Origin: Phycisphaerae bacterium
GTDB lineage: Bacteria > Planctomycetota > Phycisphaerae > UBA1845
Assembly: GCA_963666835.2 (NCBI GenBank)
Contig: CAXXGO010000006.1
Coordinates: forward strand, 2,176,001 to 2,240,000
Reading direction: 5' to 3'
DNA: 64,000 bases
The notes beneath the pieces are model-generated. The model had not been told where the DNA came from and made no database searches. It worked only from the letters and a program-made list of their open reading frames with translations. Position numbers and translations under genes: made by a program. Shown one piece after another: positions 3,839-52,452 of this stretch; the stretch's first letter is position 1; the number at the start of each line of letters is the position of its first letter.

Positions 3839-4063
3839 CTATTCGGGGCTGAGCAGAATGCTCTGCTGGTGTCCGCCTCCGAGACCCACACAGCGACCAC
3901 CCAGCCGCACCACGCAGGGTTCTCCGGGGCGCACCATCATGACACAAGCCCCATGCACGAAACCCAGGTCGGCCAGACGCTTGGCTGAGCCCTGCGAATC
4001 AAGCACCGAAGACACGGTTCCGAACTCACCCGCCTTCAAACCTGGCAGCGTCTGTTCAGCCAT
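3839..4063 (-). CDS. feoA: FeoA
   Basis: RLADLGFVHG...PGEP SH3-like FeoA pattern; GAGGAGG RBS before ATG 4063; upstream of feoB. Confidence 0.88.
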   Translation of the reverse strand: MAEQTLPGLKAGEFGTVSSVLDSQGSAKRLADLGFVHGACVMMVRPGEPCVVRLGGRCVGLGGGHQQSILLSPE

Positions 4064-40961: not shown

Positions 40962-42080
40962 CTAGCAAGCTTGTCCGGTTGATAACTTGGTAGGGGCGGC
41001 GGCGCTTCGCAGGCCGATCCATAAGGCCGCGGTGGATGCAACGACGAGGCCGAAGGCGATCCACGGATCGCGCAGAATCTCGCCGAATTGCGTGAATACG
41101 GGGAACGCCCCGGCCATCAACGCCAGGCAGGTCATTCCGAACGCGAAGGCGGGTTTGCCGGGGAACCCGGCGACGATCGTAACGAGAATCACCCCGGTGG
41201 GCATCTGGAACAGTAACATCCCCAAGGCGGCCACGTAGACGATCGGCGATCCGAACGACATTAAGGGGATCGAGATCAGCAGGGCGCCGACGGCCGCAGG
41301 TTTCCATCCGTACCGGTCGGCCAGGATCCCGCCGGAGGCCTTGCCTACTGCGGCGGCGAGTGCCAAAAGCATGGCCCCAGAGACAGTCGGCTTCGCCGCG
41401 ATTACGGCGGTCAAGCCCACCAGCGACCGAATGACGGTTGAAAAGAGCAGCAACACGATGACTGCATCGGAGATTGTCGATTCGCAAGGCTCAGTGATCT
41501 TACTTCGAGGCGCCGGGTCCGCGCCGGAACGGAGAATGACGGCGCCGGCCACCAACAGCAACGCCCCGGTTACAAATGGCAGAAGAGGCATCTGCGGACC
41601 CATCGTTACTCCGAGAACCAGCCCCAGTGCCCCGGGGGCGATGAAGATCCCCGGGGCCGCGCATCGCTTTGGAGTGAGGTTCAGGCTGAGCGATCCGGCG
41701 CCGACGTGGAACATGGCGTTTCCGACGCCGGCTACGCAGATTGACGATACCGGGAAAACGCCGACGGTGAGCACCGGCAGGGCGGTCAACAGGCACCCGC
41801 CAGCGGCCGCGAGCCGAGCAGAGTTCTTGCGATCCACGGCGAAGCCGACGAAGGGCTGGATTCCGAAAGCCAGAAAATCATAGGCCATGACCAGAGACCA
41901 GGCGGCCAGAGCGCTGAAGTCGTGTTGCGTTAACGTCTTAAAGAGGATCGCCGCGCACGAGGCGTCTATTAAGAAGTGAGCCACGGAGTAAGCGGCCAAG
42001 CTGCGGCCGGTGTTCTCTGTCGCGGTAGTGGCCGCTCGGGGCGTTGTGCGGCAGGCTATGTCCAAAGCGGGATGTACCAA
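40962..42080 (-). CDS. MFS-like multi-pass membrane protein
   Basis: About 12 hydrophobic segments; HFLID, QP..G..VD, GNAMFHVG, GGILADRYG. Confidence 0.75.
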   Translation of the reverse strand: MVHPALDIACRTTPRAATTATENTGRSLAAYSVAHFLIDASCAAILFKTLTQHDFSALAAWSLVMAYDFLAFGIQPFVGFAVDRKNSARLAAAGGCLLTALPVLTVGVFPVSSICVAGVGNAMFHVGAGSLSLNLTPKRCAAPGIFIAPGALGLVLGVTMGPQMPLLPFVTGALLLVAGAVILRSGADPAPRSKITEPCESTISDAVIVLLLFSTVIRSLVGLTAVIAAKPTVSGAMLLALAAAVGKASGGILADRYGWKPAAVGALLISIPLMSFGSPIVYVAALGMLLFQMPTGVILVTIVAGFPGKPAFAFGMTCLALMAGAFPVFTQFGEILRDPWIAFGLVVASTAALWIGLRSAAAPTKLSTGQAC

Positions 42081-42442
42081 AGTTCACCAAAGGCAAACGA
42101 CGCCAGGTTTGCTACGACGATAGTAGCATAATCGTGCGCCAAGGTGGCGCGGGGCAAGCCCTGTTTGCGGTGGAAAGCCGCCCAAAACAACAGGCATTCC
42201 GAGGCCGGGGCGAAGGTCTCGGCCACCAGAAGATACGTCAGCCGGTCCCCGGCGGGAGAGAAGAAATACGGCAAGACGACAACGACAATCGGGTAGCTGC
42301 AGCTCGTAAGCCAGGCTCCGGCGAACAAACGGTGCCGCCATGGATGTCGCGGCGAAAGCGCTGCCATCAATAACGGAGTCTCGATCAGAACGGTTAACGC
42401 GAAGCCGATCAGAGGCTGCAACCAATACACCATCGAGTTCAT
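42056..42442 (-). CDS. Small four-TM membrane protein
   Basis: LTVLIE, AE....SE, ANLASF; overlaps the next gene. Confidence 0.7.
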   Translation of the reverse strand: MNSMVYWLQPLIGFALTVLIETPLLMAALSPRHPWRHRLFAGAWLTSCSYPIVVVVLPYFFSPAGDRLTYLLVAETFAPASECLLFWAAFHRKQGLPRATLAHDYATIVVANLASFAFGELWYIPLWT

Positions 42443-42493
42443 CAGCCGGGCTTTCCCTACGCCGCTGCCCGCCGTGGAGCTTCCCCGCTTCGC

Positions 42494-42730
42494 CTACTTG
42501 CGGCGCCGCCGGGAATGCAGCGCAAGAAAGCCGGTCCCCACGAGCAACAACGATAGTATTCCGGCGCCTATCGCTCCGCACGTAGCGGACGAACCCGAAA
42601 CGATCGGAGAGGGTACGTCCGCCCATGCGGGATTCGCCAACGCCACAATTGCCAACCCCGCAAACAGGCGGGTGCTGCCCCGGAACAAGCGTCGCGAACC
42701 TCGCCGGTCGTCATGGGGTAGTATTCGCAT
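42494..42730 (-). CDS. Small exported peptide with C-terminal CG-TM-RRRRK tail
   Basis: AAGGAG RBS; signal peptide ...NPAWA|D; TCG, TM segment, RRRRK. Confidence 0.6.
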   Translation of the reverse strand: MRILPHDDRRGSRRLFRGSTRLFAGLAIVALANPAWADVPSPIVSGSSATCGAIGAGILSLLLVGTGFLALHSRRRRK

Positions 42731-43011
42731 GATAGACTCCTTCCGTTTCGTTTATCTGCTGCGCTGAAGTCCAACCACAAGGTGCCGCGCCGAGCGTTAT
42801 CAAGCCTGTATGCTCGGCCCTGTTCGCGGTCGATCGCGCTCAACCATGTGCGAATCAACACTGCAACCATACGCGGCACGAAGTGTCCATGCAACTACGC
42901 AAGGAACACCCCGGTGCCGCGTGGGGCGTTGTTTCCGGTGGGGGCGGAGGGTACGATGTCCATGCTTCACGGCGAGACCGCGTGACCTTGGATCCCGCGA
43001 AAGGAGTTGCG

Positions 43012-43992
43012 ATGGCAGGGAAGAACAGAAAGGCGGAAAAGCACCGGCGGAAGCGCCAGGCGAAGAAGAACGAGGGCCGGATCCGGGCATTGCGGATGGA
43101 GAGCCGCATGAAGAGTGATGCCTGTGTTCTGTATGCTTGTACGGCCAATCGGTACTGGCGGGAGAACGGAGAAGCGACGATTCTGGTGGCGCGCTCGGTT
43201 GGCCCGGGGCGGGTGACCATGGCCGCGTTTCTCGTGGACATCTGGGCGATGGGGCTAAAGGACGCCTGGGGACGGGTCGACATTCCGGTCGGCGAGTTTG
43301 ACGACATGCGTGCCAGACTTTCCCGTGATCTTGACTCGGCACCGCTCGATATTGGCACCGCTCGACACCTGGTTTTCGGAGGGATAGAGCTGGCCACCGA
43401 GCTGGGTTTTCGGTTGCCCCGGCGGTACGAGAGGTGGACGGCGATCCTGGGGCCCTTGCCCGATGGGGAAGCGCCGGACATGAGCCTGTTTCTGGCGGAC
43501 GGGCGCATTCGCCTGATCTGCAGTCAACGGGATCTCGAGGCTCGGTTGGTCGGTAGCAGCATCGAGACATTCCTGCAGCGTCCGGATGTCGACTTGATGA
43601 TGGGTTCCGATGACTTCACGCTGGTTGATGAGGACAAGGATGGTCTTGATGACACCTTGTCGTTGCTCGAGGACCGGATGCTCAACGCCGCCAAGGAGTG
43701 GTGTTTTGCCAATGGGCAGAGCCCGCATCCGCGTCTGGAGGATGTGGTAGGTGCGGCGGTCGAGGCGATGGTTCAGAATATCCCGGAGGGTATCGACGAG
43801 GATGAGCTGGAGGCCATTCCCCAAGAGGCCCATGAGGTAGTCAGTGATCAGATCGCCTCGTTCGTTCGGGCAACCGGACACGACGACCCCGAAGGTATGA
43901 TCGCGGCCACGGCACAGTTCGAGGAGTTCATTCGGGGTACCGAATCACCGGAGAAGTTCATGGAACTTCTGAGCTTGCCGGACCCGCCGTAG
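43012..43992 (+). CDS. Hypothetical protein
   Basis: AAGGAG RBS; basic N-terminus, FLVD...GLKDA motif, acidic C-terminus. Confidence 0.7.
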   Translation: MAGKNRKAEKHRRKRQAKKNEGRIRALRMESRMKSDACVLYACTANRYWRENGEATILVARSVGPGRVTMAAFLVDIWAMGLKDAWGRVDIPVGEFDDMRARLSRDLDSAPLDIGTARHLVFGGIELATELGFRLPRRYERWTAILGPLPDGEAPDMSLFLADGRIRLICSQRDLEARLVGSSIETFLQRPDVDLMMGSDDFTLVDEDKDGLDDTLSLLEDRMLNAAKEWCFANGQSPHPRLEDVVGAAVEAMVQNIPEGIDEDELEAIPQEAHEVVSDQIASFVRATGHDDPEGMIAATAQFEEFIRGTESPEKFMELLSLPDPP

Positions 43993-44544
43993 AATGCCGG
44001 GGCATACCGGACCATCGTTCGCGCGCGGGGTGGTTGACGCGGGTATCTGTTGGGCTGTTAGGCTCGCGACAAGTTGAGACGCAGCAAGTTGGCGAGGACT
44101 TGCTCTTCAACCTGGTTGCGACGGTCGGTCAGCTCGTGTCCCTCGGACAGTGCTCGCCCGGCGCCGGTCTCTACCCAGACTTCGGCCCAGTCTTCATCCC
44201 ATCCCCCGTCGGAGTCGACGGCTTCATAAGCGGCCAGCACAGCGCGATCGAGCTTCTCGTGCGCAAGCCGAAGCCAGGTGGGGCGTTCGTTGTAGAGGTT
44301 GGTCAAAGTGCGTCTCTTCAGGTTGGGGTCTTTGGCGGCCGCCGCGTCGATTGCCGACTGCCGGATCAGGCGCCGAGCCTCCTCGCCGCTGACGCGGGCG
44401 ACGTCGGCGAAATCGTCCTCGGCGTCGATTTGCGCGGCGATTTCCGCGATCCACTCGGGCGGATTGAGCCAGCGCTCGCGTTGCTCGTTGAGTTCACGGG
44501 CGGCTTCGGATATGCGATGCCACGCATCAGACTCCGCGCCGTTT

Positions 44545-44850
44545 GCGCCGGTGTCACCCCCTGAGCCGCGACGTTTGTTCCCTGAGCCGCGCCATTCATG
44601 TCGCGCGGTGTTTCGACATTCATGTCGCGCGGCGTCTTGGCACTCGTTTTGCGCGGAGTCGCGAGAATCATGTTGTGAGGAACACGGTTCGGGTGCGGTA
44701 TCCGGCGCGGTATGGATGTTACGGGCGGCATCGGTGTTCCGCGCGGCATGAATGCCGCGGCTCGGGTCTATGCCGCGGCTCGGGTTTATGCCGCGGCTCG
44801 GGTTTACGTCGGTGCTCGGGTCTATGCCGGGGTTCGGGTCGGATGGGATT
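44545..44850. mobile_element. In-frame non-autonomous REPIN/MITE-like insertion made of the same palindrome family plus 18 bp tandem repeats
   Basis: GAGCCGCGCCATTCATGTCGCGCGG (44584) and inverted CCGCGCGGCATGAATGCCGCGGCTC (44739-44763); ATGCCGCGGCTCGGGT(C/T)T x3 plus 2 degenerate copies. Confidence 0.75.
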
Positions 44851-45909
44851 ACGGGCTCTTTGCCGGGGGCCCAGGGGAGCGGAAACGTCTCGAAACAGGT
44901 TGTCGGGGTGTAGCGAGGTCTGTCCTCAAGCTGGGTTCCCTGGCGTAGTGCCCAAAGCTCGTGAATGCTACTGTGCAGGACACCGAAGAAGTAATCGTCC
45001 GAACGAGCAAAGGCGATCAACTGGTGATCGGGGAGGACTTGTCCAGACAAGATCTTGAAGAGGCGAAACTTTGTGAGGTTAGGTGTTGCGAGGAAACGGT
45101 TGCTCGGAAGAGCCTCGCGCATTGCGGGGCGGGGTTCAACGTGGAGCCACCAGCGCGCGGCGTACGAGGCCCGCCTATTATCTTTACGCGTGGGCCAGAC
45201 GCGTGCTTGGACGAGCGCGAGCGGTTGTTCGTATCCGGCGGCCTGCTCCAGGGTCATGTCACAGCCGAAGTCCACGATCCACATTGCACGAATGCGCTTG
45301 CTGATGTCGCTGCCGTTGGCCCATGGTCTCAGTGTGTCGGCATTGGCGCGACCGTTTGGGTTCGGTTGCCCGAGCATTAGTCGGGCTTCGGTCGGGGCGA
45401 TGTCGAATTTCCCGCCTTTTGTGTCGCCCATGTAGGCGAGGTTCTGATTTTCGCGGAGGACATTCGCTTTTGTGGCGTCCACAGTTGAGGTCAGGTCGGC
45501 GTTGATTCTCTCCGCGGAGATTCCGTCGAGGGTTGGCGGGGTTTCCTGACCACTGCCGAACCCCACAATCGATACATGCACGGCGGCGCCGTCGAGGACC
45601 CACTGGCGGTCGGACCATGCCATGAAGATGTCGCCGGTCTGCTTGATTCGCTCGAGGACGGTTCGGTTGGCGCCGCCGCGGATACCTTGGGTGGCCAGGA
45701 GACCGGCGCGAACGTTCGGCTGTTTCTCGATTACACGGCGGGCGAGTTCAAACCAATAGCAGCACAGGTCCGAGGTGTTCGGCAGGTCGAATGCCTCGTA
45801 TAACGCCTGAATGTACTCGTCCTCCAGCCCTTGCTGGCGGAACAGTTTGGAACCGAGAAACGGCGGGTTGCCGATTATGAACTCGGCTTCGGGCCATTGG
45901 GCGGGTCGC

Positions 45910-46710
45910 GGTGTCTGATCCGCGCCGCTCGCGCCCACCTGATCCGAGCAGCTCGCGCGTGCCCCACCAGCGACAGTCACCCCCTCCCGAGCCGCGACAT
46001 TTATGTCGCGCGGCAGGCAATGCTCTCGATTCACGACATTCATGTCGCGTGGCGTATTGAGATCCACGTCACGTGGATCGTGCTCCAATGCCAGCAGAAT
46101 CGACGGCTGGTCGCGGACGTAATTCACCGCGTTCTCATTCGCGCGGCCGTCACGCAGCAGGCGGCGAGAGCCGCTTGCGGTCCACCAGGAACCGGACGGC
46201 TGACGACCGAAGCGTTGACCTAAACGGCGCGAAGATACGCCCTTGAAGAGATTCAGCAGGCGGGGGCCTTCGTCCTCGTCCGACGCGACGACCAGGTGGA
46301 CGTGCGTGGCCATGATTGCCCCGGCGTGGATGGTGAGATTGTATTTGTCGCAGACTTCACGAAAGGCGGCCGCGCAGATCTCAGCCGCAGCGCGGTCGAG
46401 TCTGACGGGCGGGCCCTTCTGCCGCGACAGGGCGGCCTTGCGGAGGGCGGGTTCGTCGGCGTCGTAGGGTTCGCCGGGAATGTTGTGGATGACGTGACCG
46501 CCGTCGCCGTCCGGGACGCGACTGACGAATCCGCGTTCGTCGCCGGGGAGCCACGTTCCGTAGGTTGTCCAGGTGAGAAGGTAGGTGCCGCCGCGGCGGA
46601 GATCCGCACGGCATGAACGCTGGGAGTCGGGCGGGTTTTTATCCGCACGGCATGAATGCCGTGGCTCGGGGGCGTGACATGAATGCCGGGGGTCGGGGGG
46701 AGTCGGGGGG
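45910..46710 (-). mobile_element. In-frame IS200/RAYT-like HUH (Y1) transposase domain (46107-46586) flanked by inverted palindromic repeats
   Basis: YLLTWTTYGTWLPGD, MATHVHLVV (HUH, 46296-46304), FKGVSSR, WW..S, AVNYVRDQ (YxxxQ); flanks GAGCCGCGACATTTATGTCGCGCGG (45989) and inverted CCGCACGGCATGAATGCCGTGGCTC (46643-46667). Confidence 0.85.
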
Positions 46711-48411
46711 ATGTCGAGGATTGCGTCGCGGCATTCTATTGTTCTCAACGGTTCCAGGATCGGATCGGAGGGAGCTTTGAACCCGTTGTCACGCATCCAT
46801 TGGAGATAGCCTATCCAGATCGCTACTTGGGCCAGCTCGGCGGCGTAGGGGTTGATCTCCAGGCCGTAGAGTTGCGTCGGACGGACCTGCGGGATCAGAC
46901 CCGCGGCGATGTCCGGCCGTGCGGCGAAGGTGATTACCTCCTTTTCGAGGTTCAGAAGCTGCTGGATGGCGACGTACAGAAAGTTGCCCGACCCGCACGC
47001 CGGATCGAGGATTCGGATGGTCGAGAGACGCTCGACGAAATCTTGCAGGAGCTAGGCGGCCGCCCGGTCGGCCTTCTTACGGGTATTCGAGGTTTTGGCC
47101 TTTGTTCGTCGTTCGAGTTGGGCTTCGACCTTGGCCTGGACGTTTGCCCATTCCCGACGGAGCGGGGCCATCACCACCGGCTCGACCACGAGCATGATGT
47201 CCTCCCGGCTGGTGTAGTGGGCACCGATCTGGGCGCGGGTATTGGGGTCGAGCGAGCGCTCGAAGAGGGTTCCGAAAATAGCAGGCTCGACGCTGGCCCA
47301 ATCCTGCCTGGCCGCGGTGATGAGGAGATCGACCTCTCCGATCATCAACTCCAAAGCCGGGGCGTCGTCGAACAAGCCGCCGTTGAAAGTCGGGATGTCT
47401 TCGACGCCCAAGCTGCCGCCGGAACGCATGTTGTCAAAAAGAACCGTGAGGTCTTGCGTCAGCCGCTCCGGGTTGCTCCGCCGGTTTCGCAGGAGTCGCT
47501 CGAACAGTTTATCCGGCAGCAGCCCGACATCCTCGGCGAAGAGGCAGAACATGCACTTCATGAGGAAGTGGGCGGCGATGTGCGGATCGTGGTCTCGATC
47601 GCGCAATGCCTGGGCCAGTGTGCCGAACTGTCGGGCGATCCCCTCGGTGACCGTCTCGGAAGTCAGGTTCGGCCTCAGCGACGCCGGATCGGTGAAGACC
47701 CGGCGGAGCAGGTCGATCGACTCGGCCTCGGCCAAACGGTCGAGTTCGATGACGTGGATCTGCTTGGCCGTGCCGGTGAAGTTGGTGTGAATCTCCGTAC
47801 GGGCGATGTCACTGACGATCAGCAGCGGCGGGTTCTCCAACGCCTCGCGGTATTGGCAGAGCTGGCGGTATGCCTCGCCGAGGTCGCGATACTTGCCCTT
47901 CCGCTTGTATTCCCAGGCGAACTTGCCGCGCCACCATACGTCGGCAAAGCCCCGCTCGCCGCGCGTTCCTTTGGACGCCGGCCCGCTTACGGCCACACCC
48001 TTCTCGAAGGTGTACTCGGCGCCCGTGGCGTCATGCCCGGCTGGAGTCGGCTGGCCGAGCATCCGGCACAGGTCGAGGAAGTGCTCCTGGCTGGCGGCCC
48101 GCTCGGAAAGCGTCACGCGAGACCACTTGGCGGTGAATGCAGAGGGTGTAAGTTCGGTAGTCATACAGGTTATTGTGCTCCAGAACAGCAAAGGTGTCGA
48201 GTGGGTCGGTGAATCTCTCGAGTGACGACGGACGACGGCTGTGCCGCTACTCGAGGACAACGTAGCGAGATGGATGTCGCCCAGCAGGTCAAGCCGGCGA
48301 GTTGCAGGACGGTTCCTCCCCGTTCGCACGAACTTCCCTCTGTCCCTCCTTGGTAAGGGGGGAAGTAAGACCATCGGCACGCGTCTAAGGCACGATATCG
48401 GTTTCGCCGGT

Positions 48412-51400
48412 CTAAACGGCGGTGGTGTCGCCGCGGGCGAGGGTTAGGGGGATAACTCGCTTCTGGGTGCCTAAGACGCATACGGCTTGCGGCCCGACCA
48501 ATTGAACGAGCTTATTCAGAAGTTCCGGGCGGCACCGGACTTTCAAAGAGGCATGGCATTGGATCTGGGCGATGAACTTGTCGGCGGTTTCGACGTTCAG
48601 ATAGACGGGGCATTCCCCCGCCGACGTCCTAAGCAGTGACACCAGCTCGTCAACGGGGGTATCGGGTTTGACGTTGACCAGCAGGGCCTGGGCGAGTTCC
48701 TGGCACGCTTCATCAGCTTCGATTACGCGGGTCGTTCGGATGGACGGCTCTTCGCGTTTGCGATCCACCGTCCCTTGCACGAAGACGACCGAGTCGGGGG
48801 CGAGGATTGCCTGATATTTGGGGAGGTCGTCGGGGAATACGACCGCTTCGACGCGACCCTGCAGATCTTCCAAAGCTATGATACCCAAACGCTTGCCGGA
48901 ATTACGCCCGTTTCTTGCCACTACGGTTCGGAGATTGGAGACCATCCCGCCGACCACCACTTCCGTGCCGTCTTCGAACTCACTCAGCTTTGCTGTCGAG
49001 GTCGTGGCACATGCCTGGATCCGGCGTTCGTGGCTCGCCAGCGGATGGCGGGTGATATAGAGGCCCAGCACCGCTTTCTCCCTGGCGAGCATCTCGGCTT
49101 CGGGCCACTCCGCGGAAGAGAGCTCCGGTTCCGGGGGAGTTGTGTCCGCCAGTCCCCCACCCATCCCGAACAGCCCCATCTGCCCGCTGCGCCGGTCGCT
49201 CTGTAGCTGTTGTCCGGCGGTGACGGCGCGATCTATGGCTTCGAACAGAGCCCGGCGCATCGCCCCGGTGCGATCGAAGGCTCCGGCACAAACAAGGGCT
49301 TCGATAGTGGCGCGATTGACGGCGGAGAGATCGACGCGTTCGCAGAAGTCGAAGAGGTTCTGGTAGGGCCCGTTCTGCTTACGTTCGTCGACCACGGCAT
49401 TCACTGCCTTGGTTCCGACACCTTTAAGGGCGCCCAGCCCGAACCGGATGACTCCCTTTGTCCGGATCTTCTTCGAGCCGCCGTCCGTCGGCGTGGCTGC
49501 GGCGATGAAATTCAGTTCCGACGCATTTACACAGGGCGGCTCAATCTCGATGCCCATCTCCCGGCACTCGTCACGATATTGGGCGATCTTGTCGGTGTTT
49601 GACATTTCCAGAGTCATGACCGCCGCCATGAACTCGACCGGGTAGTAGGTTTTCATCCACGCGGTCTGATAGGCAACCAGGGCGTAGCCCGTGGAGTGGG
49701 CCTTGTTGAAGGCGTACCCGCCGAACTTGAGAATGTCCTCGAACACTTCGTTGGCGACGTTGCGTTTCACGCCGCGGGCCTCGCACCCGTCGAGGAACGG
49801 GGTCCGCATCGCCTCGATCATCTCGGTCTTCTTCTTGCTGATCGCCTTGGCCAGGCGGAAGGCGGCTTTGAGTTCTATTCCGCCCAAGCGGTTCACCAGG
49901 CGCGACACCTGCTCCTGATAGACCATGATGCCGTAGGTTTCCTGCAGAACCTCGGTCATGATCGGGTGAGGCGTGGTCCAGTTGGCACCGTGCTTACGCC
50001 CGATGTACTCCGGAATGTACTCCATCGGTCCGGGACGGTAGAGGGCGTTGGCTGCGATAAGATCTTCGATGCGGTTCGGCTTCATCCGCATGAGCACATC
50101 ACGCATGCCCCCGGACTCGAACTGGAACACGCCCTGGGTATCGCCCCGGGCGAACAGGTCGTAGACCTTCTGATCGGTGAGATCCAGTTTCCCAAGATCA
50201 ATCTTCTCGGTGGTGCTTCGCTGGGCCAGTTCCCGGGCGTGCTCCAAAATGGTCAACGTGCGCAGGCCCAAAAAGTCCATTTTGAGCAGCCCGACCTTCT
50301 CCACCGTCGGGCCGTCGTATTGCGTGATTAGACCTTCCTGTCCGGCCGCCCGGTAGAGCGGAAGGAAGTTGTCCAGCGGCTGATCGGCGACGACGACCCC
50401 GGCGGCGTGAATCCCGGCGTTGCGGGCCAAACCTTCGAGTTTCCGTCCGATGTCCAGAACGTGTCTGATGGTGGCGTTGGTTTCGTATTGCTTGCGGAGT
50501 TCCGGCTCGCGTTCCAGGGCTTTATCCAGAGTGATCTTCAGTTCGGTTGGGATCAGCTTGGTTAGTTCGTTGGCCTGTTCGAAGCCGAGCCCCATCACCC
50601 GGGCGACGTCTTTAACGGCCGCCTTGGCCTTGAGTGTCCCAAAAGTGATGATCTGGGCGACGTGCCCGTACTTGCCCCGAACGTAGTCGATCAACTGCCC
50701 GCGCCCATACTGGCAGATGTCCAGATCGATGTCGGGCATTTCGTCCCGGTCGGGATCCATGAACCGCTCGAAGTAGAGCCCGTAGCGGATTGGATCGGGT
50801 GTGCTGATGTACAGGCAGAAGGCCACGACCGAGCTGCATCCGCTGCCACGAGCTCCGACCGGGATGCCGTGTTCTCTAGCATAGTTCACGCAATCCCAGA
50901 CGATCAGGAAGTAGCTGGCGAATCCCTTGCTCGTAATGACCTCGAGCTCGTAGTCGATTCGCTCACGCAGCTCCTGGGAAATCTCCCCGTAACGCTCGGT
51001 TGCTCCCTGGTAAACCAACTGCCGCAAATACTCGGCGGCCGTGAGCGGCTTACCCGCGTCATCCGTGATTTCCTCTGGGACGCGATAGACCGGGGCGTGG
51101 CGTTTGGAAAGATCCAGCTCCAAATTGCACAGGTCCGCCACCTGAACCGTGTTTGTGATCGTCTCGGGGTGATCCGGGAACAAGGCCGCCATTTCCTGGG
51201 GGCTTTTGAAATAGAACTGGTCGGCCGGGAATCTGAACCGGTCCTCATCGGTGAGCAGGCTGCCGGTGTTGATACAGCACAGGGCGTCATGAGCTTCGAC
51301 GTCGCTGTGGTCGAGATAGTGGACGTCGTTCGTGGCCACGGTCCGCACGCCCATCCGGTCGGCAAGGTCGAGCAGTTCGGGGTTCAGGGTCTTCTGTTCT

Positions 51401-51948
51401 GGCATCCCGTGATCTTGCACTTCGATGAAGAACCGCTCCGGGCCGAAAACCTGCAAATAATCACTGGTGAGCTTCTCGGCCGCCGGGCGATCCTGTTGGA
51501 GCAAGGCGTGGGGGATCTCTCCGCTAATGCACGCGCTCATGCAGATCAGGCCCGCGGCGTTCTCGCGAAGTGCCTCCCAATCGATCCGTGGTTTGCGGTA
51601 GAAGCCCTCCGTGTATCCGATACTGCTGAGGCGCAGGAGGTTGTTGTAGCCCTCGGTATCCATGGCCAGCAGGATTACGTGGAAGTGCTCCTTGCCCTGG
51701 CGGACATCCCGGCCGCGACGGTCTCCGGCCGCCAGATACAGCTCGCACCCAACGATCGGTTTGATCCCCGCCTTGTTGGCGGCGGTGTAGAACTCTATTG
51801 CTCCAAACAGATTGCCGTGATCGGTAACGGCCACTGCCGGCATGTCGTGCTCTTTCGCCCGCTTGACCAGCTCGTTTATCCGGGTAGCGCCGTCAAGCAG
51901 GCTGTAATGCGAGTGGACGTGTAGATGGACGAACGACAAGCTGGACAT
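48412..51948 (-). CDS. dnaE: DNA polymerase III alpha subunit
   Basis: FVHLHVHSHYSLLDG PHP domain, RGSG, MPDIDLD, KMDFLGL, YAFNKAHS, OB fold. Confidence 0.98.
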   Translation of the reverse strand: MSSLSFVHLHVHSHYSLLDGATRINELVKRAKEHDMPAVAVTDHGNLFGAIEFYTAANKAGIKPIVGCELYLAAGDRRGRDVRQGKEHFHVILLAMDTEGYNNLLRLSSIGYTEGFYRKPRIDWEALRENAAGLICMSACISGEIPHALLQQDRPAAEKLTSDYLQVFGPERFFIEVQDHGMPEQKTLNPELLDLADRMGVRTVATNDVHYLDHSDVEAHDALCCINTGSLLTDEDRFRFPADQFYFKSPQEMAALFPDHPETITNTVQVADLCNLELDLSKRHAPVYRVPEEITDDAGKPLTAAEYLRQLVYQGATERYGEISQELRERIDYELEVITSKGFASYFLIVWDCVNYAREHGIPVGARGSGCSSVVAFCLYISTPDPIRYGLYFERFMDPDRDEMPDIDLDICQYGRGQLIDYVRGKYGHVAQIITFGTLKAKAAVKDVARVMGLGFEQANELTKLIPTELKITLDKALEREPELRKQYETNATIRHVLDIGRKLEGLARNAGIHAAGVVVADQPLDNFLPLYRAAGQEGLITQYDGPTVEKVGLLKMDFLGLRTLTILEHARELAQRSTTEKIDLGKLDLTDQKVYDLFARGDTQGVFQFESGGMRDVLMRMKPNRIEDLIAANALYRPGPMEYIPEYIGRKHGANWTTPHPIMTEVLQETYGIMVYQEQVSRLVNRLGGIELKAAFRLAKAISKKKTEMIEAMRTPFLDGCEARGVKRNVANEVFEDILKFGGYAFNKAHSTGYALVAYQTAWMKTYYPVEFMAAVMTLEMSNTDKIAQYRDECREMGIEIEPPCVNASELNFIAAATPTDGGSKKIRTKGVIRFGLGALKGVGTKAVNAVVDERKQNGPYQNLFDFCERVDLSAVNRATIEALVCAGAFDRTGAMRRALFEAIDRAVTAGQQLQSDRRSGQMGLFGMGGGLADTTPPEPELSSAEWPEAEMLAREKAVLGLYITRHPLASHERRIQACATTSTAKLSEFEDGTEVVVGGMVSNLRTVVARNGRNSGKRLGIIALEDLQGRVEAVVFPDDLPKYQAILAPDSVVFVQGTVDRKREEPSIRTTRVIEADEACQELAQALLVNVKPDTPVDELVSLLRTSAGECPVYLNVETADKFIAQIQCHASLKVRCRPELLNKLVQLVGPQAVCVLGTQKRVIPLTLARGDTTAV

Positions 51949-52452
51949 CGTGCGCACGGATTCCTTTCCGGTAACGGACGATGCCGCGGATCGGCTGTCA
52001 GGCTCCAGGCCGCCACACAGCCGCCCGCGACACGACGCGGCATCTTACCCGCGGACGTCCGGGTGGTCCAAGTTTTCTGTTAGCGCGTGGCTGTCCAAAT
52101 GGAGGCACATGCTGTGAATAAAGGGAACTTCACAAGTCGTTGGGAGGGTGAGGCTTTGACGGCTGCCGCGGCCTATCTGGGCGAGGACAAGGGGGCAACA
52201 AGTATGTCTAAGGCCGTGTGGCGGTTGCGGGATGTGTACGCCGCCAATGTCGGCGCCGCGAGGATCGCGAACTCACGATTCGGGGGCGATGTTTGAGCCG
52301 ATGGAGTCCTCGGCGCGGGTTTCGGTGACTCTGGGCGGTGGACAATCAGCGGTGGAGGACCCCGCGCGTAGTAGCGGCGGTCCCCGTCGCAGATCACCAG
52401 GGTTGCAATAGGGCCGATTCAGGCTGCCGTAAGACGCGACGTATCCGGCCGA

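Follow-up and report, generated by a model that had tools for sequence, protein, structure and literature searches.

The locus described here lies in a 64,000-nt stretch of contig CAXXGO010000006.1 from a Phycisphaerae bacterium (the window, within which all positions are counted) and consists of a restriction-modification (R-M) gene of the MmeI family into which a Y1/HUH transposase domain, bracketed by arrays of short hairpins, is inserted in frame. The source genome comprises 6.02 Mb at 61% G+C. On the minus strand a single frame of 1441 codons (48380-44058) was interrupted by one internal stop, and comparison with orthologs P0001 and P0003 suggests that the gene starts at the ATG at 48162-48164 (MTTELTPSAF). 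Pfam profiles were matched in the order MmeI_hel (55.4 bits, N-terminal part), MmeI_Mtase and MmeI_TRD (29.2 bits), and an uninserted ortholog (L074) aligned to the MmeI structure 5HR4 (residues 49-836, E 8e-50); on account of this domain order and structural match the host gene is assigned by sequence to the MmeI-family Type IIL enzymes. MmeI_C reached 17.2 bits, under its cut-off of 27, and MmeI_N gave no match in the host gene and was found in ortholog L032. The methyltransferase (MTase) profile MmeI_Mtase was matched in two pieces, profile positions 11-86 on the 85 codons which follow the internal stop (73.1 bits) and positions 135-251 past the insertion (36.7 bits), with the Y1_Tnp match falling between the two halves. 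The N-terminal part contains a D..EYK stretch (DVWWRGKFAWEYK) which was conserved among orthologs and which we take to be the PD-(D/E)XK-type nuclease motif of MmeI-like enzymes.

To define the insertion, 22 orthologous MmeI-like alleles from genomes of the same order were aligned. Fifteen of these were cleanly empty, and the limits of the insertion (Table 1) were set against them. The loop from DAIL to (D/E)A(D/E)FIIGNPPF was 275 residues long in the window and 14-26 residues in the 15 empty alleles, which also had no linker at a second site described below; the host sequence upstream of the insertion reads ..IECRDAILD. An earlier note on this DNA, made from the letters alone, had described about 265 extra codons without a stop at 45910-46710 and had suggested that the empty site be mapped on homologs of the host. 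The stop-free, in-frame insertion was borne out and its extent is corrected here, as is the end of the Y1 domain, which the note had placed at 46107-46586 and whose core was otherwise found where stated. DAILD had been mistaken for MTase motif I; motif I is DPACGSGNF, and DAILD is a conserved strand just before NPPF. The location of the insertion between motifs I and IV holds even with motif I moved in this way. The in-frame TAG codon, the hairpin cluster at the second site and the wide recurrence of the domain, all presented below, are absent from that note.

Table 1. Coordinates of the R-M gene, its motifs and its two insertions within the window.
Feature	Position	Strand	Content	Basis or remark
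MmeI-family (Type IIL) R-M gene, assigned by sequence	44058..48164	(-)		read through one internal stop
D..EYK stretch, N-terminal part	47904..47942	(-)	DVWWRGKFAWEYK	read by eye
In-frame TAG	47052..47054	(-)	24 codons upstream of motif I	sense codon in orthologs
MTase motif I	46980..47006	(-)	DPACGSGNF	translation; MmeI_Mtase profile 11-86
Site 1 insertion	45906..46712	(-)	807 nt, 269 codons, stop-free, between DAILD and PAQWPEAEFIIGNPPF	ortholog alignment
Upstream hairpin array	46584..46712	(-)	43 codons (IPPTPPDPRHSCHAPEPRHSCRAD..)	units 46643-46669 and 46670-46696; foot 5' on coding strand
Y1/HUH core	46107..46583	(-)	159 codons, YLLTWTTYG to NYVRDQ	no own start codon
Downstream hairpin array	45906..46106	(-)	67 codons (..PRDMNVVNREHCLPRDINVAAR..)	inverted units 45987-46013 and 46026-46052
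MTase motif IV	45858..45869	(-)	NPPF	translation; MmeI_Mtase profile 135-251
Site 2 insertion, hairpins only	44529..44852	(-)	324 nt, 108 codons, between ..FPLPWAPGKEP and DAWHRISEAARELNEQRERW	ortholog alignment

The repeat unit of both arrays consists of a CCGA or CTGA foot, a G and a hairpin. The palindromes are inverted around the core and are themselves translated (PRHSC.., PRDMNV..), as had been noted before, into linkers rich in Pro, Arg, Ser, Gly and Asp; a separate palindrome was found at 46061-46079 in the downstream array. When up to three mismatches were allowed, the 23-nt palindrome was matched four times in the window and not at all in 100 shuffles. On DNA folding of six units, three gave energies of -9.4 to -10.9 kcal/mol (z -3.0 to -3.7) and one gave -7.8 kcal/mol. 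A strain variant in sequencing run X3 had 81 additional nt (27 codons) in the upstream array with the frame kept; these lie at 46609-46670 and are made up of a 62-nt repeat of the hairpin array and 19 other letters, the array being length-polymorphic. At site 2, where uninserted alleles have ..FPLPWxPGxEP joined directly to the conserved ..RISEAAKELNEQRERW, the window contains one unit in one orientation (44739-44765) and three in the opposite orientation (44582-44608, 44606-44632 and 44654-44680), together with five copies of an 18-nt tandem repeat (44734-44841).

The identity of the core was examined by profile hidden Markov model search, as the earlier note had proposed, and by structure prediction. 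With Pfam Y1_Tnp (PF01797), whose cut-off is 23 bits, the core scored 34.8 (E 2e-8), and the scan of the genome gave 35.8 bits. The HVH motif is encoded at 46296-46304 and YVRDQ at 46107-46121, with the Tyr codon at 46119-46121 and the Gln codon at 46107-46109. Among 61 family sequences H108, K126, W146 and Y167 were invariant, and H106 and Q171 were conserved in at least 90%. The profile built from these 61 members matched the insertion sequence (IS) transposases IS200 (2F4F, 3e-11; 2EC2, 1e-10), ISDra2 (2XM3, 8e-8) and IS608 (2VHG, 6e-5), and its match to E. coli TnpA-REP (4ER8) was weak (E 0.35). An AlphaFold model from the same alignment had a mean predicted local distance difference test score (pLDDT) of 93, and Foldseek gave a probability of 1.0 for ISDra2 (2XMA), IS200 (2F4F), IS608 (2VHG) and TnpA-REP (4ER8), with target TM-scores of 0.51-0.66. 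The NCBIfam equivalog models for transposases of the REP-associated tyrosine transposase (RAYT; REP, repetitive extragenic palindrome) and IS200 types were matched below their cut-offs (NF047646, 39.6 bits against 80; NF033573, 37.5 bits against 55). Among Y1/HUH enzymes the domain forms a separate class; the proposal of a RAYT-like domain in frame within the MTase part was confirmed by the Pfam match, the HVH and YVRDQ motifs and the fold, short of the strict RAYT equivalog. The domain family, with 1321 representatives at E up to 1e-3, was mostly stand-alone, only five of the best 150 being longer than 400 aa, and in at least 90% of the stand-alone relatives the WLLTW motif was preceded by a Met at a distance of a few residues.

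Occupancy of the two sites was linked, both being filled in all six occupied MmeI-like alleles which could be assessed and both being empty in 15 of 15 empty alleles. The transposase was found at site 1 in the window and in L032, L077 and L090, and at site 2 in L091. CCGA, which equals the foot of the hairpin units, was present in both empty sites (TCC GAC CCC GAC at site 1, GAG CCG A at site 2). Another RAYT type, class 2-like (MPDHVHL.., WQ), was also observed in both MmeI-like loops: it occupied site 1 in L078 (1092-5378) and site 2 in L079 (551-4636), and the remaining site of each contained repeats only (PGAAVPHQ.., AQPPPAG..). Elsewhere in the source genome, valS was uninserted (12 residues, against 229 in genome G015), as was the 958-aa alaS open reading frame (ORF).

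A search for the 193-aa domain in 60 related genomes revealed that 14 of the 17 best places lay in open frames of 490-1427 aa, while the other three lay in frames of 205-234 aa. The hosts were one leucyl-tRNA synthetase (LeuRS; identified by reading and Pfam), five valyl-tRNA synthetases (ValRS), in which the domain always followed ..S(D/E)QWFV.., six alanyl-tRNA synthetases (AlaRS), one of them (L040) with two copies, and two MmeI-like enzymes (L032 and L091). Each embedded copy had translated palindromes of its own on its flanks (such as EPRASARAD or SRDRKGA/PLPYGRGS), and HxH and Y..Q were kept in all embedded cores. The essential genes which carried the domain were single-copy, with one alaS in each of five genomes and one valS in each of three. 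Precomputed Pfam assignments for 55 long database proteins with the domain gave 16 MmeI-like enzymes, 16 PurH, 15 class I aminoacyl-tRNA synthetases (aaRS) and 8 others; presence of the domain in an 822-aa PurH, named by NCBI for a Phycisphaerae isolate, was confirmed with Pfam. Intact MmeI-like carriers were also found (P0001, 1304 aa, with a domain 80% identical, and L032). The survey of other hosts which the earlier note had called for thus located the domain in frame at fixed loops of AlaRS, ValRS, LeuRS, PurH and MmeI-like enzymes.

Two further arrangements were seen among the hosts. The AlaRS frame of L040 (2789-7453, minus strand), the only alaS found in a genome of four contigs, is 1555 aa long with Y1 domains at residues 353-503 and 762-907. 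In four database proteins (P0025, P0044, P0051 and P0052) the Y1 domain is N-terminal with its own Met and is joined by repeat-encoded linkers to unrelated proteins, and in P0047 it is C-terminal; the partners were a PF00152 aaRS-like protein, a PfkB kinase, a helix-turn-helix regulator and UPF0261. The in-frame habit is therefore not confined to internal loops.

The earlier note had raised the worry of an assembly chimera with junctions not spanned by reads. In run X1, which may be the sample behind the window sequence, a Logan contig of 8314 nt covered 43900-48500 with no differences, and the junctions were also spanned by contigs of a second study (X2 record 10, 45884-46633, and X3 record 19). 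The TAG codon was spanned by X2 record 12, X3 record 19 and X5 record 29, with no variant listed at 47052-47054. Because contigs of two studies cover this position without a variant, the TAG is a real nonsense codon in the population. The intact ortholog P0001 has a sense codon at the same place, and the window consequently does not encode a single uninterrupted MmeI-type polypeptide. What remains is an N-terminal ORF of 442 codons and a downstream ORF of 912 codons from the ATG at 46796, which contains the element. Since the former lacks the MTase and target recognition domain (TRD) parts, the R-M enzyme is probably dead in the source genome. The break looks recent, since the D..EYK stretch, motif I and NPPF are all intact, as are the catalytic motifs of the insert. 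Broken genes were common in the MmeI-like family, with three other orthologs having a stop in the N-terminal part alone. One of these three is the element-bearing ortholog L091 (genome G056), which had a single in-frame TAG at another position (3987-3989, before YREALENPP); in the N-terminal part TGA was seen in two further orthologs and TAA in one.

A transposon which landed in a dispensable or dying R-M gene, and whose frame happens to be open, the genome being G+C-rich, would be in keeping with the nonsense codon, with the base composition and with the frequency of broken R-M genes in the family. We regard such an accident as highly improbable, since the same in-frame layout recurs in many intact orthologs and essential genes, which also speaks against the random framing that the earlier note had set out as an objection. 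The non-core segments (both site 1 linkers and site 2) contain no stop in the host frame, and in the other two frames of the coding strand there were 0 and 1 stops in the upstream linker, 4 and 1 in the downstream linker and 5 and 5 in site 2. Apart from the one TAG, moreover, the catalytic motifs of both host and insert have survived.

No in-frame ATG, GTG or TTG was found within the insertion upstream of the core, in agreement with the earlier remark that no ATG of its own is evident where the domain starts; the nearest candidates, both of them host sequence, are the ATG at 46796 and, 16 codons further on, a TTG. It is quite unlikely that the domain is started separately, whether from a non-canonical codon or from the host ATG, with the open frame merely tolerated and no fusion made. 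The 912-codon ORF from that ATG does contain the domain, and an ATG was found 8 codons before the core in the embedded relative L038 and a TTG 2 codons before it in L026. Eight of the 14 embedded cores, however, had no ATG, GTG or TTG within 40 codons upstream, and internal initiation would call for no open frame on the downstream side of the core and for no in-frame clusters of hairpins alone, yet both were always seen.

Residence in essential genes is the niche of introns and inteins, and the insert might on that account be removed before the host protein works, as an intron-like RNA, as an intein-like segment or by programmed excision of DNA. Inteins have Cys, Ser or Thr at their start and His-Asn followed by Cys, Ser or Thr at their end. 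The junctions of the site 1 insertion lie between D and IPPTPP.. and between ..TPR and PAQW; they lack the residues of this pattern and vary between orthologs, and the earlier statement that splicing motifs are missing was upheld. RNA splicing would require no open frame, and Rfam 15 gave no match to self-splicing introns or other known RNAs over 43900-48500 at E up to 1. In the contigs of four runs no joint with long flanks removed the insert; the only joints that did so had sides of 23-27 nt, and sides as short as these often derive from repeats or from other organisms. Removal of any of these kinds is decidedly unlikely.

Selection on the core and the history of the host gene were examined next to each other. 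Among five MmeI-hosted cores the ratio of nonsynonymous to synonymous substitution rates (dN/dS) was 0.09-0.18 in nine of ten pairs, for which dS of 1.3-2.3 is near saturation, and 0.34 in the closest pair, and no indel was found across the 159 core codons. These values indicate purifying selection on the core. In a quick maximum-likelihood tree of 160 domains the embedded copies fell into clades by host type (MmeI, ValRS, PurH, LeuRS, AlaRS), nested among stand-alone genes. In the whole-protein, N-terminal, middle and C-terminal host trees occupied and empty alleles were interleaved with five or six label changes, a clustering no greater than with shuffled labels, and well-supported branches required at least three changes in the N-terminal segment and at least five in the middle segment. 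The segment trees disagreed with one another, which points to recombination, so that the trees do not yield a definite count of gains and losses. Recombination of the segment from NPPF to the TRD is evident; middle segments of occupied alleles paired with those of empty alleles (L091-L073, 100; L032-L089, 97; L079-L087, 95; Shimodaira-Hasegawa-like approximate likelihood ratio test). A composite cassette, in which the site 1 and site 2 hairpins would move the NPPF-to-TRD segment as a unit, was considered and found unsupported, as the occupied middle segments formed no clade.

A domesticated domain, in which the Y1/HUH module would serve the host enzyme as a functional component (nicking single-stranded DNA or linking covalently to DNA, for instance), inherited vertically and immobile, would be in keeping with purifying selection on the core, with the clustering of domains by host gene type and with the confinement of the hairpins to the R-M gene in the source genome. 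Against it stand the sister clades in AlaRS, ValRS, LeuRS and PurH, where a DNA nuclease has no evident role, the interleaving of occupied and empty alleles in trees of three host segments, the flanking arrays with a conserved foot, kept as would be expected of the substrate of a transposase, and the unrelated RAYT type in the same two loops of L078 and L079. We consider domestication unlikely. The earlier note had offered two alternatives, a mobile element housed as a protein domain in a loop of the host and a domesticated nuclease of a defence enzyme. The first is favored; a function specific to defence is disfavored because relatives are in frame at fixed loops of AlaRS, ValRS, LeuRS and PurH.

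The hairpins belong to a genuine REP-type family. Matches were present in 42 of 101 genomes of the same bacterial family, up to 78 per genome, while a control pattern gave none; stem variants in these relatives were compensatory, and units in L099 lay between convergent genes. A typical genome-wide REP system was rejected for the source genome, where the strong units were confined to the R-M gene. Contig depth in runs X2 and X3 rose several-fold exactly over the palindromes (44516-44823, 45902-46055 and 46518-46671) with many short hairpin joints, which fits such dispersal; in those samples the hairpin family is far commoner than the R-M gene, at other loci or in other organisms. The high-depth joints 46013>46641/46648, 44608>44740 and similar ones in these two runs had been candidates for excision products and were read instead as pairs of hairpins which belong to other loci or other organisms.

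Taken with the anatomy, the frame, the clean empty sites and the recurrence in single-copy essential genes, we think it probable that the insert is a frame-preserving RAYT/IS200-like element which is translated within host proteins as an internal domain that they tolerate, and that domestication, splicing and chance are less likely. The transposon unit would be a Y1/HUH core without promoter, start or stop, bracketed by inverted arrays of foot and hairpin. Lying in frame within a variable loop of an MmeI-type enzyme, the element would be read through by host ribosomes, and the transposase would be made as an internal domain joined by flexible, hairpin-encoded peptides which the host proteins would tolerate. 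By analogy with TnpA(IS608) and TnpA-REP, the Y1 domain may cut and rejoin single-stranded DNA at the foot and hairpin sites, and this could account for turnover, by gain or loss, at the fixed loops; a hairpin-only derivative would fill the second loop of the R-M gene. In the source genome the element could be translated only from the 912-codon ORF downstream of the TAG, if at all. The wider proposal of a Y1/HUH transposon clade, mainly in Planctomycetota-labelled sequences, which is obligately intragenic, having no promoter, start or stop of its own, being expressed as an internal domain of hosts that include PurH and the single-copy, essential tRNA synthetases, and using a few fixed loops per host family, is one on which we are evenly divided.

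Several observations weigh against the reading as a translated mobile element. Because of the TAG no full-length fusion is made from the host start by ordinary decoding in this genome, and the genome has one close copy of the domain with no sign of current mobility there. Among the runs listed for 45700-47300 none was an RNA run. In a genome scan with up to seven mismatches (17 hits), all eight hairpin units of the source genome fell in the R-M gene; the nine other hits, over 6.02 Mb, had six or seven mismatches, and the reversed control gave two. Two of the six folded hairpin units were no better than shuffles. A predicted model of the MTase with its insert (550 aa, 24-row alignment) had a mean pLDDT of 54 and a predicted template modelling score of 0.36, with only the Y1 part confident, and as a model it lends no support to tolerance of the insert by the fold. 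Joint occupancy of both sites by two unrelated RAYT classes is not explained by simple independent insertion, the CCGA at the empty sites is a mere 4-mer in a G+C-rich gene, and clustering by host type would also be expected from long co-inheritance or domestication.

With regard to the surroundings of the gene, the R-M gene is immediately preceded by an ORF of 1181 aa for a DnaE-like DNA polymerase III alpha subunit (48412-51957, likewise on the minus strand), and the ORFs listed at 42000-51000 gave no sign of a mobile-element or defence-island setting. Compared with MmeI itself (5HR4), the host shares domain order and motifs, and the window copy differs by two in-frame insertions and one nonsense codon.

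Among known systems, REPtrons (RAYT or TnpA-REP, 4ER8) share with the element a single-copy Y1/HUH enzyme of the same fold, inverted arrays of short hairpins with a 5' foot and, in the related genomes, a dispersed extragenic hairpin family; the E. coli TnpA-REP (4ER8) and other RAYT genes are reportedly flanked by inverted REPs. The element differs from REPtrons in being intragenic and in frame without its own start and stop, in that the hairpins of the source genome are not dispersed and stay within the R-M gene, and in a sequence profile closer to IS200-type TnpA than to 4ER8. The IS200/IS605 TnpA enzymes (2VHG, 2XM3, 2F4F) gave the best profile and fold matches and share HUH, Y...Q, subterminal hairpins at both ends and a target 4-mer which resembles the foot, CCGA being present at both empty sites of the MmeI-like gene. 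Unlike them, the window domain has about 50 extra N-terminal residues with a WLLTWTTYGTWLPGD motif and hairpin arrays in place of one hairpin per end, falls below the IS200 equivalog cut-off and shows no multi-copy IS behavior in the source genome.

The nearest published description is of the class 3 TnpA-Y1 enzymes, from Planctomycetes and Acidobacteria, with NHVH, W[TA], Y----Q and hairpins with a 5' CnGA foot (PMC6006769; Quentin, Siguier, Chandler, Fichant 2018). On that description the element shares the phylum (by the source names of close homologs), (N/T)HVH (THVH in the window), WWT and the CCGA/CTGA foot; it differs in that the window clade has Y---Q (YVRDQ), whereas the AlaRS-hosted relatives have Y----Q as in class 3. 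In the quick domain tree the window and AlaRS clades fell on opposite sides of the midpoint root. The same survey reports REPs in frame inside tnpA-REP genes, and leaves out "unexpectedly long proteins", which it takes for fusions or errors of annotation (PMC6006769). A stand-alone relative of 343 aa (P0017) with about 15 tandem copies of the peptide ..PGPNA(G/R)VPKDATT.. in frame between its HUH and Tyr motifs recalls the REP insertions described there.

In-frame residence of palindromes within genes is itself already published for REPs and for Rickettsia palindromic elements (PMC3733652; Di Nocera 2013). The window element has in common with them residence in frame within functional ORFs, tRNA synthetase genes included, and the site 2 cluster is exactly of their kind; those elements, however, are short, of non-coding origin and without an enzyme, whereas here a complete transposase lies inside the insert. 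Inteins with homing endonucleases share selfish residence in frame within conserved, often essential genes, fixed sites and the coexistence of occupied and empty alleles, and differ in that the window element has no splicing motifs at its junctions, encodes a Y1/HUH transposase in place of a LAGLIDADG or HNH endonuclease, and is presumably retained. Rickettsia palindromic elements were reportedly seen inserted in frame in genes by Ogata as early as 2000. In the full-text literature searched, which left out subscription journals and the supplements of PMC6006769 and PMC3733652, we found no description of a complete RAYT/IS200-type Y1 transposase embedded in frame in host genes.

Embedded elements may explain the "unexpectedly long" transposase annotations which earlier surveys discarded as erroneous (PMC6006769). 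The source names of database proteins carry a corresponding warning for annotation, as housekeeping genes with the embedded domain are labelled "transposase".

A transposon that enters a gene is expected to disrupt it, and the known exceptions are spliced out (introns, inteins) or are tiny non-coding palindromes. If our reading is true, a whole enzyme-encoding element would persist as translated protein sequence in essential genes, which would be a new route by which mobile DNA can hide from selection and the transposon counterpart of the intein niche without splicing, with terminal hairpin arrays doubling as coding linkers. The loops in AlaRS, ValRS, LeuRS, PurH and MmeI-type enzymes would form a natural catalogue of places which tolerate insertions of 200-330 residues, and the elements would be a source of new domain fusions. 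Residence in an essential frame would in turn protect the element from deletion, as its imprecise loss would destroy the host gene.

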